Of a stretch of 64,000 nt of DNA, positions 31,088 through 41,233 are shown piece by piece. Origin of the DNA: Thermoprotei archaeon. Its GTDB lineage: Archaea; Thermoproteota; Thermoprotei; Thermoproteales; B15-G16. The stretch covers positions 192,001-256,000 of the forward strand of contig QMRC01000002.1 in the NCBI GenBank assembly GCA_003649205.1, written 5' to 3'. The translations under genes and the position numbers were made by a program. Position 1 is the first letter of the stretch, and every line of letters starts with the position of its first letter. The notes under the pieces are model-generated. The model saw nothing but the letters and a program-made list of their open reading frames with translations. It was not told the DNA's origin and did no database searches.

Positions 31088-33067
31088 ATGAAGCTGGAGA
31101 ACCTCGAAAGCAAGGTATTGGTAATAGATGTTACTAACCTCAACGTACGTGAGGAGAAGGTCAAGGGCATACTAGGACCAATTAGCTGGGGTCTACACTG
31201 TCACCTAGAGAAGTATGAGAGTTTCAAGTACGATGTCTTTGATGAGCACAACGTTCTGTGTGCTGGCATAGGTAAGTTAGCAGGTAGCGTAATACCTGGT
31301 ACACAGAGACTGGTATTCACCTTTAGATCACCGATAACAGGTGGTTTCTACATATCGTCGCTCGGAGGTGGAGGAATACCATTGCTAGCACTGGGGATAG
31401 ATTACCTCGTTGTAGAGGGTAGAGCTAGAGAGCCAGTCGTTGTACTCCTGAAGAACTTAGGTAAAGGTGTTGAGGCAGCCTTCGAGCCTCTACCTAGAGA
31501 AGAGTTGTTCAGAATTTATCGAGAGTACAGGGGTGAGATAGGAGTATATGCTCTCGAGAGGTACTTACTAGAGAAGTACAGAGATCAGTACCTTTACGAT
31601 GGTAGGTACGTCACATTTAGGATATACTGTGTAGGTCCTGCTGCTTGGAGTACAAGGTACGGCATGATATTCTCGTCAGTAATAAGGAACGGTGAGATAG
31701 ATGTAGGTGCTGAGGACTTTGCAGGTAGAGGAGGTGCCGGTTCAGTACTAGCTAGGTGTCACAATGTAGTAGCCATGCTCATCGGTGGTGTTGAGAGTAA
31801 GAGAACTTTCCCCGCAAGTGATCTAAGGGATGTGAAGGTAACTGATGACGTATTTAATTCAGTAATGGGTAAACCCATGAGTAAGGCAGCTTTTGATGCA
31901 ACAGTAAAGTACAGATATGACCCAAGTGTAGGTTCTGGCGGTACATTTGGAGTGAACATGTCGACACTTAAGGAGAAATCTGTCCTCTTCAACTGGAAGA
32001 GCATCTACCTAGGTAAGGAGGAAAGGTTAAGGTTATGGGAATCATTGATTAGAGACCACTACCTAAAGCAATTTAATGAGGAGATTATAGCCAATAAGCC
32101 AAAGACCTTCAAGACCTGTGGTGAGCCCTGTCCTGCAGTGTGCAAGAAGGTGTGGGGTAAGTACAAGAAGGACTATGAACCATATGCAGCACTAGGTTCC
32201 TTTATTGGTATATTTGATCAGAGAGAAGCAGAAAAGGTAGTTCACACAGCTGATGCTCTGGGTTACGACGCAATATACATAGGTCAGGTTATTGCTTGGG
32301 TATTTGAGTGTCTTGAGAAGGGACTTCTTACACCTAAGGACTTAGGTCTAGATAAGGTACCGTGCATAGATCCAGAGAATTACAGGATTGAGTACTCGAG
32401 CATGAATGCGGAGTTAGCCATCAAGGTACTTGAGGGTATTGCCTATGCATTAAATGACGTGTACAAGGTGCTTGGTGATGGAGCTAGGAGAGCAGCTTAC
32501 ATACTTGAGGAGAAGTTCAAGGACAGGGTAGCTAAGGTAGGTACTAGATTTAGAGATCTACTCGTCTACACACCATATGGTAAGGATGGCGACATGTTAC
32601 CTACGATGTACTGGGCTCCAGGTAACGTTATGCCAATACCAATACAGGGTAAGTACCTGACAGTATATCACACAGAATTTGCTGAACCTGAGGAATTTGC
32701 ACAGAAGTGCTTCACTAGAGCAATTAAGGAGCTGTACTCTGAAGAAGGTGGACTCTGTAGATTCCATAGAGGTTGGGGTGAGAAGGTATTGCCTAAGCTA
32801 ATTGAGGTAGGCTACGGTGTTAAGGTGAATATGGATGAACACTGTAGGGAGTTGCTGAAGAAGATTGCTGAGTATAATGTCAAAGCAGGTGCATCAGTTT
32901 GCTTCTGGGATAGTAGGAGAACAATTGACTATGTCTTCACAGCAGCTAAGGAAGTCGGATTCACTACATGGTTTGAGAAGTACCGTAGAGATCCTGAAGC
33001 AACAGCGAGAGAGTACTGGGAACGCTTTTACAGTAAGTACACGGAGCTGCTTGGTGTTAAGTTCTAG
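31088..33067 (+). CDS. gor: Glyceraldehyde-3-phosphate:ferredoxin oxidoreductase (GAPOR)
   Basis: AGRGGAGS, TCGEPCPAVCKK, DYEPY, YWAPG and GLCRFHRGW motifs. Confidence 0.9.
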   Translation: MKLENLESKVLVIDVTNLNVREEKVKGILGPISWGLHCHLEKYESFKYDVFDEHNVLCAGIGKLAGSVIPGTQRLVFTFRSPITGGFYISSLGGGGIPLLALGIDYLVVEGRAREPVVVLLKNLGKGVEAAFEPLPREELFRIYREYRGEIGVYALERYLLEKYRDQYLYDGRYVTFRIYCVGPAAWSTRYGMIFSSVIRNGEIDVGAEDFAGRGGAGSVLARCHNVVAMLIGGVESKRTFPASDLRDVKVTDDVFNSVMGKPMSKAAFDATVKYRYDPSVGSGGTFGVNMSTLKEKSVLFNWKSIYLGKEERLRLWESLIRDHYLKQFNEEIIANKPKTFKTCGEPCPAVCKKVWGKYKKDYEPYAALGSFIGIFDQREAEKVVHTADALGYDAIYIGQVIAWVFECLEKGLLTPKDLGLDKVPCIDPENYRIEYSSMNAELAIKVLEGIAYALNDVYKVLGDGARRAAYILEEKFKDRVAKVGTRFRDLLVYTPYGKDGDMLPTMYWAPGNVMPIPIQGKYLTVYHTEFAEPEEFAQKCFTRAIKELYSEEGGLCRFHRGWGEKVLPKLIEVGYGVKVNMDEHCRELLKKIAEYNVKAGASVCFWDSRRTIDYVFTAAKEVGFTTWFEKYRRDPEATAREYWERFYSKYTELLGVKF

Positions 33068-33085: not shown

Positions 33086-34207
33086 ATGGTCGACAGTAAG
33101 AAGCTCGAATTTTTTAAGATACCTCACTTCGTAGTTTTTGGCTCGAGAGCTATTGAGAAGATTCCTGAAGTACTTCGTAAAGTTGGTCTCCTACCTGATT
33201 CTAGGGTTGTCTTGTTGACTGGACCTACAACAACGTACAACATAGCTATGAATTTGGTCTACCCTAAGCTTGAGGAAGTGACTACTCATGTGGAGGTTGT
33301 TAAAGTAGTACGTGAGGGTGATATGGTTAGATTTTTACTTGAATTAAGAGGGTTTGTGAAGAGGTTTGAACCGTCTATAATAGTCGCTGTTGGTGGTGGT
33401 TCAGTAATTGACTGTGCTAAGGTCATTGCACACTGGCTAGGTATACCATACATCACTGTACCTACTAGTGCTAGCCATGATGGAATAGCATCCCCTGCAA
33501 TATCGTACCTACTTAGGAAGAAGTTGAGTGAGTGTATTGGTGGTGATTACTCAATACTTGATCCACCGATTGCTGTTGTGGCGGATATTGATGTTATATC
33601 GAGAGCACCGTATAGGTTGTTAGCCGCTGGTTGTGGTGACTTAATAGCTAAGTTAACAGCTGTTAGGGATTGGAAGTTAGCACATAGGCTTAAGGGTGAG
33701 GACTATAGCGAGTACGCTGCCTCTCTTGCAATTTCTAGTGCCAAGTTGGTCATGCATAAGGCTGATTACATACCTAAGCTAAGTGAGGATAGCGTTAGAA
33801 CTGTCGTTAAGGCATTAATTGGCTGTGGTGTAGCGATGAGTATTGCTGGTTCATCAAGACCTTGTAGTGGTGCTGAGCACCTCTTCAGTCATGCTCTAGA
33901 TTACCTATCTGAGAAGTATGGATTCAAACCAGCACATCATGGTGAGCAGGTTGGTGTGGGTACAATACTCATGGCGTATCTACACGGTATGAGGTGGTGG
34001 TTAATCAAGAAATTTCTACGGAAGGTTAAGGCACCTACAACAGCTGAGGAGTTGGGTATTGAACCTAAGTACTTGGTAATGGCTCTAACTATAGCTCATA
34101 AGATAAGACCTGAGAGGTACACTATACTTGGTGATTCAGGTATTTCCGAGAAAGCTGCATGGAAGTTAATTAGGGTAACAGGTGTAGTGGGTGAGAGTAG
34201 TGATTGA
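33086..34207 (+). CDS. egsA: sn-Glycerol-1-phosphate dehydrogenase
   Basis: GGGSVID, PTSASHDGIASP, SGAEHLFSH and HGEQVG motifs. Confidence 0.95.
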   Translation: MVDSKKLEFFKIPHFVVFGSRAIEKIPEVLRKVGLLPDSRVVLLTGPTTTYNIAMNLVYPKLEEVTTHVEVVKVVREGDMVRFLLELRGFVKRFEPSIIVAVGGGSVIDCAKVIAHWLGIPYITVPTSASHDGIASPAISYLLRKKLSECIGGDYSILDPPIAVVADIDVISRAPYRLLAAGCGDLIAKLTAVRDWKLAHRLKGEDYSEYAASLAISSAKLVMHKADYIPKLSEDSVRTVVKALIGCGVAMSIAGSSRPCSGAEHLFSHALDYLSEKYGFKPAHHGEQVGVGTILMAYLHGMRWWLIKKFLRKVKAPTTAEELGIEPKYLVMALTIAHKIRPERYTILGDSGISEKAAWKLIRVTGVVGESSD

Positions 34208-34955: not shown

Positions 34956-35005
34956 TCAGCTCGCCAGCTCGCAATCACAGTTCATCAGATAGGTAAACTC
35001 ATCAC
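34956..35005 (-). ncRNA. C/D-box sRNA, 3' unit of a tandem
   Basis: GTGATGA-GTTTACCTAT-CTGA-TGAACT-GTGATTG-CGAGCTGGCGAG-CTGA; D guide antisense to conserved 16S TCGCCAGCTCG. Confidence 0.8.
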
Positions 35006-35087
35006 TGGTACCGGGGAAGTGGGGGCTCGTCGAGGTGAAGCTCGGGCACCCTGTGATTCCCGCCGGAAACCTTTCACTCATCGCCCC
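35002..35087 (-). ncRNA. Extended C/D-like RNA with internal hairpin, 5' unit of a tandem
   Basis: GCGATGA..CCGA/CGACGA K-turn-like pair..GTGA; GC-rich; TTTTAA about 25 nt upstream. Confidence 0.5.
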
Positions 35088-35236
35088 AAGAATTACCTCA
35101 AGATTAGCAACGTTAAAATTTCTTTCCTCTAACGACATCGTAGTGAAGTGATCTCTCTCGAGTATTAGGAACCTGGGTTTCTGATTGATGAGGATAAGGT
35201 CCGCCAGCGATGACATCACCTGATGAACTGTAACCC

Positions 35237-36292
35237 ATGAAGATCACGAAACTACTCATAACACTTGAACCCTATACCAGAGGTGAGGAAAGTAAGGTAC
35301 TCACAATACTGAGTAAACTAACTTCACGAAGTAGTGTAAACTTCGTAATTAAACCATACAGATCTACTATTGGTAGGAGATTAGTTGTTGAGTTGGGGGA
35401 TGAAGTTGATGTACCTAAGGCACTTGAGGTAGCTAAGTTACTTAAGGAATGTCCTCATGTAGCTAGAGTACTCGTACTCCTGAATGAAGGACTTCCAGTG
35501 GACTTAGGGCATCTATGTAGTAGAGCTATTGAGTTACTATCTCCTGTTGTAGAGTGCTTAAGACCTAAATCGTTCAAGGTGATAGCTAAGAGAGTATGGA
35601 GCGATTACCCATTAACAAGCACCGAGGTAGCTAGTAAACTGGGTTCTGTAGTCAATGAGAGATTCTCCATACCTGTTGACGTTCATGCACCTGAGTTCAT
35701 TGTGTATGTGGAGGTACATAGAGAACACGCTATTCTGGGATTTTCAACGTATGAACTATATTTCAGTAGGTGGAAGTGTTTACCGAAGAACTTCTTCGAG
35801 GACGTAGTTGTTCTACTCGAGAATCCTTGTCTAGAACTAGAGATCATGGACCTCGTTAGGCTGTGTGTTGCCTATGGTATTGAGCTGAGAGTAGTTGGTA
35901 AGGATAAGGTTAGGGAAATGATTGAGAAGGCTAGATCCTTGATGAAAGGTGCTGGTCAGAGAGCTTCCATAAGCTACTTCACGTCACTCAATGAGGCACT
36001 AAGTGGGGTAGATGTGACAATTGCTCTTAGTAGATACGCTCGTCTCAATGAGGAGGATCTAATCAAGATACTGGATACCTGCATTCGAAATGGTAAGAAG
36101 ATTTGCTTCCTCATAGGTAACGAGTACAAGGGCTTGAGTGTTGAAGCACGTGAGAGAGCAAACTACATAGTTAGGCTAGGTCCTGAGCATGGTTTTTCAC
36201 TCAGGGGTGTAGCGGCTCTAGCATATACACTAGGAATTTACGCAACAGTTAAGTTAGGGATTAAACCACTACACTACGGAATGGCCCCGTAG
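35237..36292 (+). CDS. THUMP + SPOUT RNA methyltransferase (TrmTS-like)
   Basis: THUMP motifs SFKVIAKR and VDVHAPEFIVYVEV; SPOUT motif FLIGNEYKGLS..VRL..SL. Confidence 0.8.
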   Translation: MKITKLLITLEPYTRGEESKVLTILSKLTSRSSVNFVIKPYRSTIGRRLVVELGDEVDVPKALEVAKLLKECPHVARVLVLLNEGLPVDLGHLCSRAIELLSPVVECLRPKSFKVIAKRVWSDYPLTSTEVASKLGSVVNERFSIPVDVHAPEFIVYVEVHREHAILGFSTYELYFSRWKCLPKNFFEDVVVLLENPCLELEIMDLVRLCVAYGIELRVVGKDKVREMIEKARSLMKGAGQRASISYFTSLNEALSGVDVTIALSRYARLNEEDLIKILDTCIRNGKKICFLIGNEYKGLSVEARERANYIVRLGPEHGFSLRGVAALAYTLGIYATVKLGIKPLHYGMAP

Positions 36293-36356
36293 CCTAGCCT
36301 GGAAGGGCGGCGGCCTTCGGAGCCGCAGGTCCCGGGTTCAAATCCCGGCGGGGCCG
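36283..36356 (+). tRNA. tRNA-Arg(TCG)
   Basis: GGCCCCG/CGGGGCC acceptor stem, GCGGC-CTTCGGA-GCCGC, discriminator G, CCA not encoded. Confidence 0.95.
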
Positions 36357-36384
36357 CTAACTACCTACATCCCACGGTGATACT

Positions 36385-37542
36385 GTGACTGATGAATACC
36401 GTCAACTCCTCAACTTACTTAGGAGTAGTGAAGCAGCTGGTACTGTAGTGAGGGACATAGAGAGGTTATCTAGGGGCATTGACAACGTTAAGATAGTTCA
36501 TGTCTGTGGTACTCACGAACACACAATATCTAGGTTTGGTATTAGGTTAATACTGCCTAAGAACGTCAAGTTAATTGCAGGTCCTGGTTGCCCAGTCTGT
36601 ATCACACCTGCGAGTGAAATCGATGCTGTTATCGAGCTAGCTCTCTCCGGTGTGGCAGTACTTACGTTTGGTGACATGCTTCGTGTACCTGGAAGTGAGT
36701 TATCTCTCTTTCAAGCTAGAAGTAGGGGGGCAGATGTAAGAGTTGTGTACAGCTTTCTCGATGCAATTAAGGTAGCTAGATCTGAACCAAGTAGGGAGTT
36801 TGTGTTCTTTGCAATCGGTTTCGAGACAACAGCTGCAACAGTAGCACCGTACATAGCGCTTGGTAAGGTACCTGAAAACCTAAGTCTCTTTGTCTCTCAT
36901 AGATTGATACCTCCAGCTATGGAATTCATGTCACTACTTAGACATGGAGCTGATGCGTACATAGCTCCGGGTCATGTATCTACAATAATTGGGTGTAAGC
37001 CCTACGAGGTGTTTCCTAAGGTGTATAGACAGAGTGTTGTCATTGCTGGATTTGAGCCTCTTGATGTTTTACTTGCTGTAAAAACAATATTGGATTTAAC
37101 TAAGCGAGGAGACGTCAAGCTAGTTAATGAGTATAGTAGGGCTGTCAGATACGAGGGTAATGTCTTGGCTCTCAAGTACATGTACCGTGTCTTCGAGGTC
37201 GTAGATGGTGCTTGGAGGGGTATTGGTGTGATTCCTCAGTCTAAGCTATGTCTGAGAAGTGAGTATCGTAGGTATGATGCTGTGGAGAGGTATGGAATTA
37301 GTATTCGACGTGGTATAGATGTTAGACCAGGTTGTAGATGTGGTGATGTGATTGTTGGTAGAGCTGTTCCAACTGATTGTCCGTACTTCGCTAAGGTATG
37401 TACGCCGAATAACCCACTAGGGCCATGTATGGTCTCAATGGAGGGTACCTGTCGTATTTGGTATCAGTTTGAGAGGACGAGAGGTGGTGAGGTATCTGAG
37501 AGGGAACGAGCTACTGAGTATCTATATAACTCGTCTTCGTAG
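36385..37542 (+). CDS. hypD: Hydrogenase maturation protein HypD
   Basis: HVCGTHEH, GPGCPVC, GFETT, PGHVS and GPCMVSxEGTC motifs. Confidence 0.96.
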   Translation: MTDEYRQLLNLLRSSEAAGTVVRDIERLSRGIDNVKIVHVCGTHEHTISRFGIRLILPKNVKLIAGPGCPVCITPASEIDAVIELALSGVAVLTFGDMLRVPGSELSLFQARSRGADVRVVYSFLDAIKVARSEPSREFVFFAIGFETTAATVAPYIALGKVPENLSLFVSHRLIPPAMEFMSLLRHGADAYIAPGHVSTIIGCKPYEVFPKVYRQSVVIAGFEPLDVLLAVKTILDLTKRGDVKLVNEYSRAVRYEGNVLALKYMYRVFEVVDGAWRGIGVIPQSKLCLRSEYRRYDAVERYGISIRRGIDVRPGCRCGDVIVGRAVPTDCPYFAKVCTPNNPLGPCMVSMEGTCRIWYQFERTRGGEVSERERATEYLYNSSS

Positions 37543-39544
37543 ATTTTACAGGGAGCTGCTAACACATTACTATGAAGTTCGGATTTATGGTGACGGTATT
37601 AGGTGTGAGTTCTGTGGTAGACATTGCTTTGTTGAGAAGGGTAGCACTGGGTCTTGTGGTCTTAGCTATGAATCTATTGCTGCTAAGAAGTTACTGATGT
37701 GGGCTGTTATCGGTCTTAGTACTCACCTACACTCACTCAATACCTTAATGAGGTACTGTGGAGCTGATATACTACCTCGTATCAAGACCTCTAGTGGTGT
37801 GTACATTATCGAATCTGTGGTGGGTAAAGTACCTGAGAGTTTGGGTGAATTACGTGACTTAGTCTATGAGCTGAATGAGGTTTGTAATTGGTTGGTAGCA
37901 CAACTACATTTTGGTCAGGAGAGTTCGGTTGTTGAGTTAGTGTCTCTCAGTCTATTTGCTGGTCTTCTAGACTTAATGGTTTGTGAACTCTATGAATTGA
38001 TCAACGGTGTTATGAGGAAGGTTAAGGGTTCCTCTCCTAGACGTGAATTGAGGAGGGTACCTGTTGCGCGTTATAGGGTAGGTAAGCCGAGTATACTTGT
38101 GATTGGTCATAATTCACCTATTGTTGCTGAGTTAGTTGATTTGGTTAAGAAACGTGGGATTGATGTGCAGATCTATGGTCTCTGCTGTAGTGCTCACGAG
38201 CTTTCACACTACGTGGATGAGAGTGGTAAGTTCTTCTTTGCTGGTTCTTTAGCTGAGCAGGTTGAGGCTGTGGCTTCAGGTATAGCGGATGTTGTTGTCA
38301 TAGATGAGCAGTGCATTATGCCTCTTGTACTCACTATTGCGGATGAGCTAGGTATCATTACTGTACTGACGAGTCCATCTATATGTAGTGATGCTCCTGA
38401 TTTAACGTACTTAGGTAGTTGTAGCGATATCGTTAGAAAGGTTGTAGAGAACAAGGTAAAGAGGTTCGTTGTGAGCAATGTTAGGTTAGCTGCTGAGGTA
38501 GCTATTGAGCTAGCTAAGTATCGTTGGCTTAGTGGTGGTTATAGGGATAGTATAGGATTGTTAGCTAGATGTAGTGATTGTCTTCAATGCCTTAAATTGA
38601 GTACTTGCTCTACTGAACAACCTACTACGTGTTGCGATTGCGTTCTATGCCTTGAAGCTTGTCCCGTAGATTACCCAATCTCTAGGTACCTACAGTTGAG
38701 GACATGTAGCACTCACGAAGTACACTACGTGGTTTCTGGTCTAGACCAGGTACCTAGAGCTGAAATTCACGATGTAGCACCGACCTACGTAATGGGCTTC
38801 GTTCCTGGAATAGTAGCTGTCACTGGCTGTCCTGAGTATCCTCACTCCTACAGCGATCTATCAACTTTAGTACAGGAACTTATGTCACTAGGCTTTACAG
38901 TTCTATCAGCTGGTTGCACGGCCATTGTCCTTAGCTACTTTGGAGCTTATGAGCATGGCGCTTTAGGCTTTACCAGAGGTGGTTTATTGAACTTTGGTTC
39001 CTGTTTCGGTAATGTACGTATTGTCGAGTCGGTAATTGAGTTAGTACGTAAGTGGAGTGGATTAGAGGTACGTGGTAACTACGAGAAGATCTTTAGCGAG
39101 ATCTTACTGAGGATACCTATAGTAGCAGCACTACCTGGATTACTAACAGAGAAAGCTCTTGCTCTAGCGCTTGGCTTTACTTCATTTGGGATACCGACTC
39201 TTGTTCGATCTACAGCAGTAACGAGGTTACTCAGCATAGTCGGTAGGGAGTGTAGTAAGTACTTTGATAGACGGTGTAGAGCTATCCTCACACTACCTAC
39301 AGTACCCCCTACACTATTCACATCAGTAAGTAAGAGGGAACTACTTACAACAATTTTGCTCTGTAGTATGAGACATTGTGAATCTCCTTACTCAAGGAGG
39401 GTGAAGTACCGTGTACTTCATGAACAGGGTATTGACATAGCGAAGTATGTACGTACTTTCTACGAGCTTCCAGATGGGATCACCGTGGAGGAGGTAAAGC
39501 CGGGCTATGTACCTGACTTGGAGCTAGTAGTGAGTAGCAGCTAG
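37469..39544 (+). CDS. Divergent CO dehydrogenase, archaeal CdhA type (start may be GTG 37484/37487)
   Basis: CxxCx3Cx9CG, HFGQES, VIGHN, GLCC, DEQC, ferredoxin insert, GCPEYP, AGC, GSC and EKA motifs. Confidence 0.8.
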   Translation: MRGREVVRYLRGNELLSIYITRLRRFYRELLTHYYEVRIYGDGIRCEFCGRHCFVEKGSTGSCGLSYESIAAKKLLMWAVIGLSTHLHSLNTLMRYCGADILPRIKTSSGVYIIESVVGKVPESLGELRDLVYELNEVCNWLVAQLHFGQESSVVELVSLSLFAGLLDLMVCELYELINGVMRKVKGSSPRRELRRVPVARYRVGKPSILVIGHNSPIVAELVDLVKKRGIDVQIYGLCCSAHELSHYVDESGKFFFAGSLAEQVEAVASGIADVVVIDEQCIMPLVLTIADELGIITVLTSPSICSDAPDLTYLGSCSDIVRKVVENKVKRFVVSNVRLAAEVAIELAKYRWLSGGYRDSIGLLARCSDCLQCLKLSTCSTEQPTTCCDCVLCLEACPVDYPISRYLQLRTCSTHEVHYVVSGLDQVPRAEIHDVAPTYVMGFVPGIVAVTGCPEYPHSYSDLSTLVQELMSLGFTVLSAGCTAIVLSYFGAYEHGALGFTRGGLLNFGSCFGNVRIVESVIELVRKWSGLEVRGNYEKIFSEILLRIPIVAALPGLLTEKALALALGFTSFGIPTLVRSTAVTRLLSIVGRECSKYFDRRCRAILTLPTVPPTLFTSVSKRELLTTILLCSMRHCESPYSRRVKYRVLHEQGIDIAKYVRTFYELPDGITVEEVKPGYVPDLELVVSSS

Positions 39545-39554
39545 GTACTCTCGA

Positions 39555-40346
39555 CTATTGCTTCCTTAACTCAGTCCTAACTAATTGAGCAGCCTTTCTA
39601 GCAGATAGTACTACGGGAGTCATGTCAAGTACAGGTCTTGGTGATCCGAAGACAGCGTTAGCAGCTAAACTGCAGACGACTATACCTGGTAGTACCTTTC
39701 GTGTATTAGCAACCATAGCTCTACTAGCTTCCTCTACCCAGTAACCCCTCAACCCTATAACCGTACCATCTGGGGTAGGTACCTCTAGGTACGGTACACT
39801 TCTTAGTGCAGTCTCAACAACAAGAGCATTTTCCGTCGCATCGACAATAGCTCTAGACCTTATACACATTGTGAAGTTACCAATCTCAACAACAACTCCC
39901 TGAACAACATATTTTTGCAACTCTCTTGCATATAGTACGTCTCTGAAGTTAGCAGGTAGCAGTACCTTGACCTTTCTCTCCAAGCACCTAGCTACGGCCT
40001 TGATCATTAGTGTGTAGAGGTCCATGACTAAGAGGTCCCCTGATGAACACTCCTCTACTAGACCATGCTCCTTGAGTATCTCTATGGCATCTCTCCTGAA
40101 TATGGCAACACCAACCGCACCTTGGTAAGAGTACTTAACCTCGTAAGGTACTGTACCTTGTAGAACGAGCACTACCGAGTGCTCTGTAGCTAAGCCAATT
40201 GCTACCAGCGGTGAGGCTATACTCGATCCAACGATTACGCAATCACATGTTATGTTTGGTGGGTAGTTTGTAGCTATGTACTGAAGAATTGAGTTCAGTA
40301 CCCCGGAATCGCTCATCAATTCGCTGGGCATGATTCTCATCACCAC
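39555..40346 (-). CDS. Degenerate Thi4 (thiazole synthase)-like protein
   Basis: DCVIVG, RAIVDAT, NTRKVLPG, ANAVFGSPR and LSARKAA motifs. Confidence 0.7.
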   Translation of the reverse strand: MVMRIMPSELMSDSGVLNSILQYIATNYPPNITCDCVIVGSSIASPLVAIGLATEHSVVLVLQGTVPYEVKYSYQGAVGVAIFRRDAIEILKEHGLVEECSSGDLLVMDLYTLMIKAVARCLERKVKVLLPANFRDVLYARELQKYVVQGVVVEIGNFTMCIRSRAIVDATENALVVETALRSVPYLEVPTPDGTVIGLRGYWVEEASRAMVANTRKVLPGIVVCSLAANAVFGSPRPVLDMTPVVLSARKAAQLVRTELRKQ

Positions 40347-40381
40347 AGAGTAAATAACCTAATCTCGAACCCGAGTTCACT

Positions 40382-41233
40382 ATGAGACTACTTGTCAAGG
40401 TTTTCTACGATGGTAGGTATTTTGAGGGTTACGCAAGACAACCAGGTAAGGATACCATTGAACAGCACATTATCGACGCACTAATCGATTGCGGGTACAT
40501 ACGAACAGCTAAAGAATCTAGATTTCAATCAGCTTCGAGAACAGATCCCGGTGTATCAGCTATATCTCAGGTAATATGCTTCACAACAGATAGAACCACG
40601 TTCTACGTCATGGAGGTAAATGATAGACTTCCACAGCAGATAACGCTGTGGTCCTATACGCGAGTTCCACAAGACTTCAATTTACGTAGAGCTATAGCCT
40701 ATAGATTCTACAAGTACTTCAAGAAGTACGAGGGTGAGGACATTAGCTCTATGAGTGAAGCAGCTAGGCTATTGATCGGATACCATGACTTTAGGCATCT
40801 CTGTGTTGTCGATAAGAGGAGACCAGTAACTAGGACTAAAGTGTACTGTGTTGCTGTTAAGCACATACGTACTTTAGATCTCTTGGTATTTGACTTCGTA
40901 GGTAGGTTCTTTCTCAATAAAATGATTAGAAAGTGTGTATCTGCACTCGAGATGGTTGGTAAGGGTCTACTCAGTATTGATGAATTTCGTAAAGTAATTG
41001 ATAGTGAGATTAAGCCAAAAGCATCCATACCGCCAGCACCAGCTAGTGGATTAGTTTTAGTGGATGTTGGATTACCTATTAGATCTAGGTTTATTGTTTC
41101 CAGACAGGCACTTAAGAGGATAAGGAGGTACCTCAGGACTACAGTACAGGAGCTTTGGTCATGTACCTCCGCACTAAGCTATATTTACGATATGATGCTC
41201 GATGTCGGTAGTAGCGTTGGGCATATTTATTAA
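40382..41233 (+). CDS. truA: tRNA pseudouridine(38-40) synthase
   Basis: YDG..GYARQ, ASRTDPGVSA, GYHDF, FLNKMIR and APASGL motifs. Confidence 0.93.
   Translation: MRLLVKVFYDGRYFEGYARQPGKDTIEQHIIDALIDCGYIRTAKESRFQSASRTDPGVSAISQVICFTTDRTTFYVMEVNDRLPQQITLWSYTRVPQDFNLRRAIAYRFYKYFKKYEGEDISSMSEAARLLIGYHDFRHLCVVDKRRPVTRTKVYCVAVKHIRTLDLLVFDFVGRFFLNKMIRKCVSALEMVGKGLLSIDEFRKVIDSEIKPKASIPPAPASGLVLVDVGLPIRSRFIVSRQALKRIRRYLRTTVQELWSCTSALSYIYDMMLDVGSSVGHIY

Follow-up and report, generated by a model that had tools for sequence, protein, structure and literature searches.

A CdhA-type CO dehydrogenase gene overlapping hypD in a Thermoprotei archaeon: a candidate source of CO for the hydrogenase cofactor

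The only canonical hypD gene detected in the genome of an uncultured, heat-loving Thermoprotei archaeon (order Thermoproteales) is overlapped at its 3′ end by a gene for a CdhA-like protein (P0001), to which it is predicted to be translationally coupled. As judged from its sequence, P0001 is a genuine, selected and catalytically equipped Ni-CODH of the Cdh type (clade A, D-cluster-less), and no other apparently intact CODH was detected in this genome. The pair of genes was duplicated as a unit and both copies have been kept, the second in degenerate form within the hyp operon, so that the two pairs share common descent. Our best reading of these data is that P0001 would be a HypD-associated CODH supplying CO for the Fe(CN)2CO moiety of [NiFe] hydrogenases, and we put the probability of this at about 0.4.

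The hypD/cdhA-like locus

The window analysed is a continuous stretch of 64,000 nucleotides, and the features of the locus are given in Table 1. A first-pass annotation of this DNA had reported a 691-aa CODH reading frame overlapping the end of hypD, as is indeed found. Read in the +1 frame with respect to hypD, the cdhA-like gene overlaps it by 56–74 nt for any of the three starts, the hypD stop codon being at 37540-37542. The only alternative in-frame starts before residue 77 are the two GTG codons, and no start downstream of this TTG/GTG set is compatible with the CdhA homology, which begins at about residue 20, within or just after the overlap. Public gene calls place the start differently (685, 686 and 598 aa); the 598-aa call would remove the B-cluster Cys. 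An equal arrangement occurs in a congeneric genome, located at a contig edge. Upstream, a tRNA-Arg(TCG) gene lies 27 nt 5′ of the hypD start, and the THUMP/SpoU methyltransferase ORF that precedes it runs with its 3′ end into this tRNA gene.

Table 1. Features of the hypD/cdhA-like locus (window positions)
Feature	Position	Strand	Evidence or remark
tRNA-Arg(TCG)	36283..36357	+	ARAGORN; Rfam tRNA 65.6 bits
hypD, canonical	36385..37542	+	PF01924 449 bits; TIGR00075 437 bits, cut-off 192.8
cdhA-like Ni-CODH (P0001)	37469..39544	+	691 aa from TTG; likely start 37484/37487
Overlap of hypD 3′ end and cdhA-like 5′ end	37469..37542	+	74 nt (TTG 37469), 59/56 nt (GTG 37484/37487)
B-cluster Cys motif C46, C49, C53, C63	37604..37657	+	Alignment and position check
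H86 (acid/base His position) and H88, shortened His run	37724..37732	+	Alignment to 3cf4
C-cluster ligands H214 (IGHN), C239/C240 (GLCC), C282 (DEQC)	38108..38314	+	Alignment
Ferredoxin-type insert for E/F clusters	38570..38662	+	Motifs CxxCxxCx5C, CxxCxxCxxxCP; pLDDT 55-66
C-cluster ligands C454 (GCP), C483 (AGC), C512 (GSC)	38828..39004	+	Alignment
K562, near-invariant Lys column of CdhA family (acid/base Lys)	39152..39154	+	Alignment
C-terminal domain (residues ~585-691)	39221..39541	+	23% identity to canonical CdhA; lineage-specific C-terminus

The encoded HypD carries CGTHEH, GPGCPVC, GFETT, PGHVS and the C-terminal Cys (alignment A5). This corresponds to the motif list that we take to define HypD (CGxHxH, GPGCPVC, GFETT, PxHVS and a C-terminal Cys), which was checked against nine Thermoproteales HypDs.

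P0001 matched the Pfam Prismane profile (PF03063; 119.4 bits, cut-off 27, E = 2e-34), a family match far beyond chance. This score, above the gathering score, and a CODH fold place it in the Ni-CODH/prismane superfamily. It does not qualify as a CdhA equivalog, as TIGR00314 gave 231.2 bits, under the cut-off of 781.3, and neither a CdhB partner nor the setting of a cdh operon with cdhC/D/E was found for it. Identity to canonical CdhA was 23-28%, with the sequence match extending over residues 44-647, and the divergence was spread fairly evenly over all domains (23-31%) rather than confined to the C-terminal domain. The AF2 model (pLDDT 84.6) gave TM scores of 0.81-0.83 to the solved CdhA structures (Methanosarcina barkeri 3CF4; M. 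thermophila 9C0Q-9C0T), and of ~0.53 to CooS. Apart from this fold, P0001 and CdhA have in common the C-cluster ligands, the catalytic His and Lys, the B-cluster Cys, the ferredoxin-type insert and the Cdh-specific C-terminal domain. P0001 differs in being ~100 aa shorter, in its lack of D-cluster Cys, its truncated E/F linker and diverged C-terminal domain, and in its gene position, outside a cdh operon and overlapping hypD in a genome where no CdhB was found. The reading frame is open across 691 codons in two species, and comparison with the congener gave dN/dS of 0.154, indicating purifying selection and not the decay that a ratio near 1 would have signalled to the earlier annotators.

The residues of the Ni-CODH C-cluster and acid/base sites, whose identities we take from the CODH literature and from passages of Inoue et al. 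2019 (PMC6344411), form a complete set in P0001 by alignment: one His, five Cys, and the acid/base His and Lys. These residues, H214, C240 (with C239), C282, C454, C483, C512, H86 and K562, are invariant in this genome, in the congener and in an MSBL1 relative that shares 33% identity with P0001, and so are the B-cluster Cys. Both D-cluster Cys are absent by alignment, the motif being C-E-F-C without an upstream Cys. P0001 does not, then, have the Type I D-cluster of canonical group A-1 in clade A, given in passages of PMC6344411 as CxxCC at the dimer interface. In the ferredoxin-type insert, motif 2 is perfect, while motif 1 has a non-canonical x5 spacing and lacks CP. The region contains eight Cys, is modelled with the low pLDDT listed in Table 1, and has a linker of ~8 aa, compared with ~30 in canonical CdhA. 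The motif reading of the first-pass annotation (B-cluster Cys, C-cluster ligands, catalytic Lys, loss of the D-cluster, one incomplete ferredoxin motif) was thus confirmed by position and alignment. Its further point, loss of an HxxHxxH relay, holds insofar as the run is cut to two His; however, Ignisphaera-type canonical CdhAs likewise carry just two, so the shortened run is no special loss.

Hydrogenase maturation genes and a second, degenerate pair

A genome search for HypD found the canonical gene and a degenerate HypD′, and no others. The maturation set further comprises HypC with Cys2, HypE ending in PRIC, HypF and HypA, and group 3b-like and group 4 [NiFe] hydrogenases with DPCxxC motifs are encoded. 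The remaining hydrogenase system looks functional from these predicted proteins. No hydrogenase structural gene lies near the hypD/cdhA-like locus. In relatives, hypD is found within the hyp cluster, adjoining hypC, and there is no CdhA-like gene, which suggests that the CdhA-type gene entered the hyp operon in this lineage.

The hyp operon is located on another contig, in the order hypE-hypD′-X-hypC with spacers of 4-12 nt. HypD′ (337 aa) scored 127 bits in Pfam but has CGxHxH, GPGCPVC, GFETT and PGHVS all replaced and one C-terminal Cys lost, and is classed as a degenerate HypD. It clusters with the HypD of this genus against nine other Thermoproteales HypDs (support 97/97). Residues 147-293 of its neighbour X (293 aa) align with residues 540-688 of P0001 (hhalign probability 98.7%, E = 2e-16, 36% identity). 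X therefore retains only the P0001-derived C-terminal domain and residues 540-584, and the catalytic residues are gone. Across 401 Thermoproteota genomes, X matched itself and P0001, plus two sequences at E~0.004 that are broken by stop codons; it did not match the canonical CdhAs present in 96 of these genomes. Purifying selection acts on the two degenerate genes as well (dN/dS of 0.19 and 0.13). Conservation without any catalytic residue indicates that some non-catalytic role of the protein pair exists. With a second pair of HypD′ and a CdhA-derived protein between hypE and hypC, the Hyp link of P0001 is stronger than the window had revealed. The two pairings may nevertheless stem from one accidental adjacency and a single segmental duplication, and would then be non-independent.

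Conservation of the hypD-cdhA adjacency, on which the earlier proposal had been made to depend, was not upheld beyond one congeneric genome. Among the other Thermoproteota genomes with both families, adjacency was seen in 0 of ~73 (nearest 6.1 kb, on opposite strands), and none of 80 metagenomic loci of canonical cdhA adjoined hypD. The pairing was found in one genus only (two species); the system is rare, with hints in two other lineages. To our knowledge, CODH is missing from most anaerobes that possess [NiFe] hydrogenases. Given this, and the rarity of the pairing, P0001 could not be the general or universal route to CO.

A possible CO source for Fe(CN)2CO, and alternatives

Under the preferred reading, a P0001 homodimer would take up electrons from ferredoxin via its B and E/F clusters and reduce CO2 to CO, which would be passed to the iron held by HypC-HypD, where Fe(CN)2CO would be assembled. 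Docking on HypCD could occur through the diverged C-terminal domain. HypD′-X would then be a catalytically dead derivative of a HypD-CODH complex, serving as scaffold or regulator, and P0001 might also serve ACS, whose own alpha subunit is dead. HypD binding, the direction of catalysis and the delivery of CO are what we infer for P0001. We know of no specific mutant or enzyme for the anaerobic route to the CO ligand. The first-pass annotation had called this route unsettled, and passages of two reviews agree, still terming it the most pressing open question and noting that ~10 nM exogenous CO outcompetes the endogenous precursor of the ligand (PMC12134894, PMC8454700). According to passages of PMC13370988, ACS, the CO acceptor of ACDS, docks mainly on the CdhA C-terminal domain, where the gas tunnel ends. 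X has retained this same acceptor-docking domain. A more specific scheme, in which a Cdh-type CODH was retargeted from ACS to HypD, its C-terminal domain binding HypCD so that CO2-derived CO is channelled onto the cofactor iron and dead HypD′-X being a derived scaffold, seems doubtful as a whole.

A serious possibility, though short of probable, is that P0001 is a general Wood-Ljungdahl CODH making or oxidising CO for CdhC. It would have evolved rapidly from the separate CdhA(B) that accompanies the dead CdhA′ of the ACS operon in related Thermoproteales, its adjacency to hypD being accidental and copied once by segmental duplication. Homologues of cdhC, cdhD, cdhE and cooC were not found in the 64-kb window by tblastn, and the first-pass description of a "solitary" CODH is true of the window only: a frhB-like-cdhA′-cdhC-cdhD-cdhE-cooC operon lies ~63 kb upstream of P0001 on the same contig. 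Its CdhA′ is without the B- and D-cluster Cys, the His ligand, GLCC, DEQC and GSC, nearly all cluster ligands being lost, and neither cdhB (PF02552, 0 matches) nor cooS was found in the genome, which is 93.8% complete. With the alpha subunit of this ACS/CoFeSP operon dead and no second CODH found, the cell would depend on P0001 for ordinary C1 metabolism through the Wood-Ljungdahl pathway. Consistent with this, CdhC is strongly conserved (dN/dS 0.043), and Mer-like, Mtd-like and F420 biosynthesis genes are present. A related genus has an equal operon with dead CdhA′ and a separate intact cdhA-cdhB pair, and these intact CdhAs are the best P0001 matches within the order. Clade A also includes known CODHs that lack the D-cluster yet have a complete active site, and these are usually linked to ACS in the groups covered by passages of PMC6344411. 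A complete ACDS with which P0001 grouped had been named earlier as evidence against a dedicated role; the operon does exist, but it has no CdhB, its CdhA′ is ligand-less, and P0001 is separate from CdhA′ in the tree. P0001 branches outside all 46 other CdhA-family sequences and not with Thermoproteales CdhA, a position that long-branch effects may have influenced. The C-terminal domain, which docks ACS, is far less canonical in P0001 than in the dead CdhA′ (23% and 42% identity to canonical CdhA, respectively), and the congener additionally carries a CooS-type CODH. A general CODH would also leave two things unexplained: the joint departure of the P0001 gene and the one functional hypD from the hyp operon, and the purifying selection that maintains a CTD-only X and a dead HypD′ as closely spaced neighbours between hypE and hypC.

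It is rather improbable that P0001 and X are Hyp-linked without donating CO, as a scavenger, sensor or scaffold binding HypD-type proteins that might, for example, shield cofactor assembly or hydrogenases from CO leaking off an ACS without a live alpha subunit. Such a role would account for the equal pairings hypD-P0001 and HypD′-X, and for the conservation of two catalytically dead proteins; degenerate paralogue scaffolds (HoxV/HupK) are described in hydrogenase maturation in passages of PMC12134894. However, every catalytic residue of P0001 is kept across relatives of 33% identity, which argues for real CO/CO2 chemistry, and no regulatory or sensing domain was evident in the protein. The dependency could also run in reverse, with HypD, through its [4Fe-4S] cluster and thiol-disulfide relay, serving the CODH as electron donor or as helper in Ni-Fe-S assembly. 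The coupling of the genes, the lack of the D-cluster as usual solvent-exposed electron entry point, and the redox activity of HypCD (passages of PMC8454700) fit this idea. It is nonetheless very unlikely, since the cdh operon has its own gene for a CooC-type maturase, ferredoxin exchange could still proceed through the E/F-type Cys motifs, and the surveyed passages on CODH gene context hold no precedent (PMC6344411; eLife 2026). That P0001 is an annotation artefact or decaying pseudogene, as the disagreeing start calls, the score far under the equivalog cut-off and the long branch might suggest, is hardly credible, being contradicted by the frame open in two species, the low dN/dS, the conserved ligands and the confident fold.

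Should the retargeting scheme be true, P0001 would be the first enzyme identified as supplying the CO ligand of the [NiFe] cofactor under anoxic conditions. Binding of the proteins and CODH-dependent entry of 13CO2 into Fe-CO would establish one natural anaerobic route to the ligand, with the gas tunnel and docking architecture of CODH put to a new use. The genome is a compact test system for this, with a complete-looking CODH coupled to the only functional HypD and a fossil pair in the hyp operon. Were the CO-source reading false, the locus would still present an ACDS whose alpha subunit is dead and whose live CODH is encoded elsewhere, and two new pseudo-enzymes, HypD′ and X, in a maturation operon.

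Relation to known systems

P0001 may be the anaerobic functional counterpart of HypX, an analogy of proposed function with no relation in sequence or fold. HypX decarbonylates formyl-CoA derived from formyl-THF, whereas the putative role of P0001 is reductive conversion of CO2 to CO at a Ni-Fe-S cluster. In passages of PMC12134894, HypX is the dedicated accessory enzyme making CO for HypCD in aerobic, O2-tolerant [NiFe] hydrogenases. The same source describes HupK/HoxV as degenerate homologues of the large subunit; HypD′ and X, which belong to other protein families, are likewise predicted to be catalytically dead paralogues in a maturation operon.

CODH genes beside hydrogenase-related genes are familiar from the CooS-ECH hydrogenase-hypA/hypB clusters (clades E/F, D-1). 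In passages of two surveys, association with a hydrogenase is nearly confined to clades E and F (eLife 2026), and hydrogenase maturases occur mainly in clade F CODH operons (17%), HypA/HypB being found with groups F and D-1 (PMC6344411; eLife 2026). Those clusters, which serve CO-driven H2 production, combine a CooS-type enzyme with the nickel chaperones HypA/HypB and the hydrogenase itself. Here, in contrast, a Cdh-type CODH is paired with the Fe(CN)2CO scaffold HypD, away from hydrogenase structural genes.

Deep-branching Cdh-type CODHs without D-cluster Cys make up groups A-2 to A-6 of clade A in passages of Inoue et al. 2019 (PMC6344411). P0001 agrees with what is described for group A-2, which combines a complete active site and motifs of the E/F type with the lack of a D-cluster, and the operon CdhA′ agrees with the description of the ACS-linked groups A-4/A-6 (incomplete C-cluster and acid/base residues). 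Groups A-2 to A-6 are reported there as clustered with ACS subunits; the gene for P0001 is instead clustered with hypD, 63 kb from ACS.

The hypD-cdhA-like locus and its product

In the source genome (G000; 2.07 Mb in 31 contigs, 93.8% complete, 4.2% contamination), the cdhA-like gene encoding P0001 overlapped the 3′ end of hypD, as the first-pass annotation had described. The window corresponds to positions 192001-256000 of contig C2 in this genome. The candidate start codons were TTG 37469, GTG 37484 and GTG 37487; the following in-frame start was residue 77, and homology to CdhA began at about residue 20. The choice is therefore limited to these three codons, which sets the overlap at 56-74 nt in the +1 frame. 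A HypD-CODH fusion by programmed frameshift was set aside, as the HypD C-terminus was of normal length and GTG/TTG starts were available for P0001.

The genes for GAPOR, glycerol-1-phosphate dehydrogenase and TatD upstream of hypD indicate a housekeeping region. The first two lay 3-5 kb upstream, and reduced ferredoxin could come from GAPOR. The tRNA-Arg(TCG) gene overlapped the final 10 nt of the THUMP/SpoU ORF, and 27 nt separated its end from hypD; hence transcription of hypD and the cdhA-like gene may be shared with the tRNA region or begin inside it. A search around the gene pair for att-like direct repeats of the tRNA-Arg 3′ end gave none, and thus no sign of an integrated element. An Rfam scan of 35000-40500 gave this tRNA and no other RNA family. 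A search for sequencing runs gave three DNA runs, one of them possibly the source, and no RNA run.

Coordinates of the genes and operons discussed (plain positions count within the window; C, contig)
Feature	Position	Strand	Remark
GAPOR-type aldehyde:ferredoxin oxidoreductase	31088-33067		615 bits, under the 1300-bit equivalog cut-off
Glycerol-1-phosphate dehydrogenase	33086-34207		upstream of hypD
THUMP/SpoU methyltransferase gene	35237-36292	+	from gene order
tRNA-Arg(TCG)	36283-36357	+	from Rfam scan
hypD	36385-37542	+	stop codon 37540-37542
P0001, 691-aa ORF	37469-39544	+	overlaps the hypD 3′ end
Thi4-like gene	downstream of P0001	-	convergent
frhB-like-cdhA′-cdhC-cdhD-cdhE-cooC	G000 C2:162431-170784 (L004 6432-14788)		outside the window, same contig, ~63 kb upstream
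hypE-HypD′-X-hypC	G000 C6:15426-18611 (L017 9426-12611)	one strand	spacers 4-12 nt
Group 4 large-subunit gene, copy 1	G000 C3:24546-25502	-
Group 4 large-subunit gene, copy 2	G000 C3:265927-266883	+
CooS-type CODH gene, partial	G001 C113:3-1430 (L118)		at contig edge

P0001 scored 119 bits against Pfam Prismane and 231 bits against the cdhA equivalog model, far under its 781-bit cut-off. Its AF2 model (pLDDT 84.6, pTM 0.89) resembled the CdhA structures 9C0S, 9C0Q, 8RIU and 3CF4 (TM 0.81-0.83) more closely than CooS-type CODHs (TM ~0.53). Alignment and position identified the B-cluster cysteines (C46, C49, C53, C63), the C-cluster ligands (H214, C239/240, C282, C454, C483, C512) and the acid/base residues H86 and K562. 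Both D-cluster cysteines were missing, and the ferredoxin insert held eight cysteines, oddly spaced in motif 1, and had a linker of ~8 aa. The initial motif description (C-cluster, Lys and B-cluster kept, D-cluster Cys apparently lost, one ferredoxin motif incomplete) was thus correct. Within clade A, CODHs that lack the D-cluster but have a complete active site are already known as structural groups A-2 and related (Inoue et al. 2019, PMC6344411), and the protein type is therefore not new.

Besides P0001 itself, the closest database relatives were canonical CdhAs at ~28% identity. When 1.84 billion representatives were searched exhaustively, the nearest relative was a 702-aa protein from an MSBL1 archaeon (P0051, KXB01086.1; 33% identity), annotated as a hypothetical protein in its source record. 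In a CdhA-family tree of 57 rows, P0001 and its orthologue from the congeneric genome G001 shared a long stem (1.38) and, with the MSBL1 protein, fell outside a 98%-supported clade holding all other 46 CdhA-family rows, a position that may reflect long-branch attraction to the outgroup.

Pairwise comparison of G000 with G001 (Nei-Gojobori script) gave dN/dS values of 0.154 for the cdhA-like gene, 0.105 for hypD, 0.193 for hypD′, 0.126 for X, 0.049 for hypC, 0.071 for hypE, 0.107 for cdhA′ and 0.043 for cdhC. None of the eight genes compared is in decay. For the cdhA-like gene, where a ratio near 1 had been named at first pass as the mark of decay, this value makes it scarcely credible that the gene is an artefact or decaying. 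Judged by its sequence, P0001 is a selected CODH with a full set of catalytic residues.

A second HypD-CODH-derived pair in the hyp operon

The search with P0001 also matched a 293-aa ORF on contig C6, here called X, directly upstream of hypC. The operon encodes HypE (339 aa, ending PRIC), a degenerate HypD (HypD′, 337 aa), X and HypC (80 aa, starting MC); nikR-hypF runs divergently upstream of it. An Mtd-like (Mpt_N) gene is also close by. HypD′ scored 127 bits against Pfam HypD with all conserved HypD motifs replaced, and X had no Pfam match. Residues 147-293 of X aligned to 540-688 of P0001 (hhalign 98.7%, E = 2e-16, 36% identity), and the two have in common the peculiar C-terminus of P0001. 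What X retains is the C-terminal domain (CTD) of CdhA.

Among 401 Thermoproteota genomes, a CdhA-family match occurred in 96 and HypD in 269, while matches to X (counted in 3/401 genomes) were X itself, P0001 and two at E ~0.004 broken by stop codons. X therefore stems from the P0001 lineage and not from a canonical CdhA. HypD′ clustered with the HypD of its own genus against nine other Thermoproteales HypDs (97/97 support), both on long branches. The relatives searched had one HypD each, adjoining hypC and hypF, and no CdhA-like gene; the degenerate pair sits where hypD sits in these related operons. G000 has no canonical hypD besides that of the window, and the P0001 gene is welded to this sole functional copy. 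G001 keeps all three loci. A HypD plus CdhA-like pair is thus present twice by common descent, and both degenerate genes, which encode two new pseudo-enzymes, are maintained.

A profile search of 5.8 billion proteins gave three clusters of X-type proteins: those of G000 and G001, and P0105, a 268-aa protein from a 1214-bp public contig with ~30-32% identity to X. A CTD-only derivative therefore exists outside the genus. The AF2 model of X (mean pLDDT 54.7, residues 1-135 under 50) was not good enough to support a fold search, and its ESM Atlas look-alikes (best scores 0.81, structural TM ≤0.42) gave no usable lead. A HypD′-X complex prediction, run without controls and with an uncertain partner fold, scored 0.00 and speaks neither for nor against binding.

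The ACDS operon and the distribution of the pairing

The CODH had been called solitary, which holds within the window but not in the genome, where an acetyl-CoA decarbonylase/synthase (ACDS) operon lies upstream on the same contig. Its last gene encodes a CooC-type ATPase, with a Mer-like gene next and CofD and CofE genes nearby; cdhB (PF02552) was not found in G000, at 93.8% completeness. The CdhA′ of this operon (680 aa) lacks the B- and D-cluster Cys, the His ligand, GLCC, DEQC, GSC and the entire ferredoxin insert, although its dN/dS of 0.107 shows purifying selection. An ACDS grouping with P0001 had been raised as a counter-indication; the operon is there, without cdhB and with a ligand-poor CdhA′, but the grouping is not, as CdhA′ falls elsewhere in the tree, among other Cys-poor forms. 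No further PF03063 gene and no cooS were found in G000, which leaves P0001 as the one intact CODH detected there.

In CODH dimers, C-cluster electrons go to the B-cluster of the partner subunit. A P0001-CdhA′ heterodimer was set aside, CdhA′ having no B-cluster Cys to receive them. A related Thermoproteales genus (g8) carries the same dead-CdhA′ operon (frhB-like, CdhA′ and cdhC) and also, separately from it, cdhA and cdhB as an intact pair. The frhB-like gene beside cdhA′ is reminiscent of the F420-reducing CODH from Ca. Ethanoperedens (title of PDB 8RIU). Public CdhA-family proteins of 630-700 aa (P0069, P0076, P0078, P0079) also lack GLCC/DEQC/GSC, so that ligand-less forms are recurrent; they made up at least two separate groups in the tree. 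G001 carries a partial CooS-type gene with intact-looking C-cluster motifs, adjoining DNA syntenic with G000 C5:38425-41209; tblastn found no counterpart in G000.

A conserved hypD/cdhA-like adjacency was not borne out beyond the congener. In a scan of species-representative genomes, which did not cover the MSBL1 genome holding P0051, it occurred in G001 only. CdhA-family genes lay within 5 kb of HypD in 0/73 other Thermoproteota genomes with listed positions, compared by hand with 22 further genomes left out; the closest spacing was 6.1 kb, on opposite strands. The best 80 metagenome loci were all canonical CdhA (25-29% identity), included no member of the P0001 subfamily and had no HypD homologue in their flanks (0/80, 1.15 Mb). 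The pairing is not general.

Roles considered for the CODH

P0001 is a Cdh-type CODH without a D-cluster whose genetic link to HypD is previously unreported. In published context surveys, hydrogenase or maturase genes are associated with the CooS-type clades E, F and D-1, and C1-pool genes with clade A (PMC13056359, PMC6344411). Here a Cdh-type gene accompanies hypD; survey supplements aside, no report of this combination was found.

A redundant duplicate that arose by accident would be likely to disappear. That both dead neighbours have been retained suggests a joint function for HypD′ and X and, through common descent, for HypD and the CODH as well. In ACDS, the CdhA CTD is described as the main docking surface for domain A2 of the CO acceptor, ACS, at the CO tunnel exit (PMC13370988). 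The CTD is 42% identical to canonical CdhAs in CdhA′ versus 23% in P0001, which has diverged throughout (23-31%) and not in the CTD alone. In the most economical mechanistic model, the live CODH would dock HypC-HypD, instead of ACS or in addition to it, and would supply CO for Fe(CN)2CO. We give a Hyp-linked CO-donor role a probability of about 0.4.

This model is in line with current knowledge. The anaerobic source of the cofactor CO is described as unresolved, and CO2 reduction on HypCD as a working hypothesis only, with the electron source unknown; ~10 nM free CO is reported to suffice to outcompete the endogenous precursor (PMC8454700, PMC12134894). No CODH partner of HypD was proposed in the literature found on the anaerobic CO ligand.

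It is also quite possible that P0001 is purely metabolic, the ordinary Wood-Ljungdahl enzyme of the cell. With a dead alpha subunit in the ACS complex and no other CODH detected in the genome, P0001 is needed for Wood-Ljungdahl chemistry whatever else it does, and the two pairings could come from one chance adjacency copied once. The first-pass proposal of a dedicated CO source for HypD therefore stands in part: the HypD-CODH pair occurs twice, but the distribution is narrow and the sole CODH has this metabolic demand. Other Hyp-linked roles of a CODH-like protein seem unlikely, and the reverse arrangement, in which HypD would serve the CODH, still more improbable. The locus makes the long-standing question of the anaerobic CO source directly testable, its significance tempered by the narrow distribution and the strong mundane alternative.

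The Hyp system is probably in use in G000, judging from its hydrogenase genes. Contig C1 carries a group 3b-like operon (whose large subunit ends in a short C-terminal tail after DPCVSCAVH) and C3 a group 4 membrane-type hydrogenase (DPCFSCTDR). A HypA gene is on C9; classical HypB was not found in G000. The group 4 large-subunit gene occurs as two identical-scoring copies, inverted and near both ends of C3, which could be a true inverted duplication or an assembly artefact.
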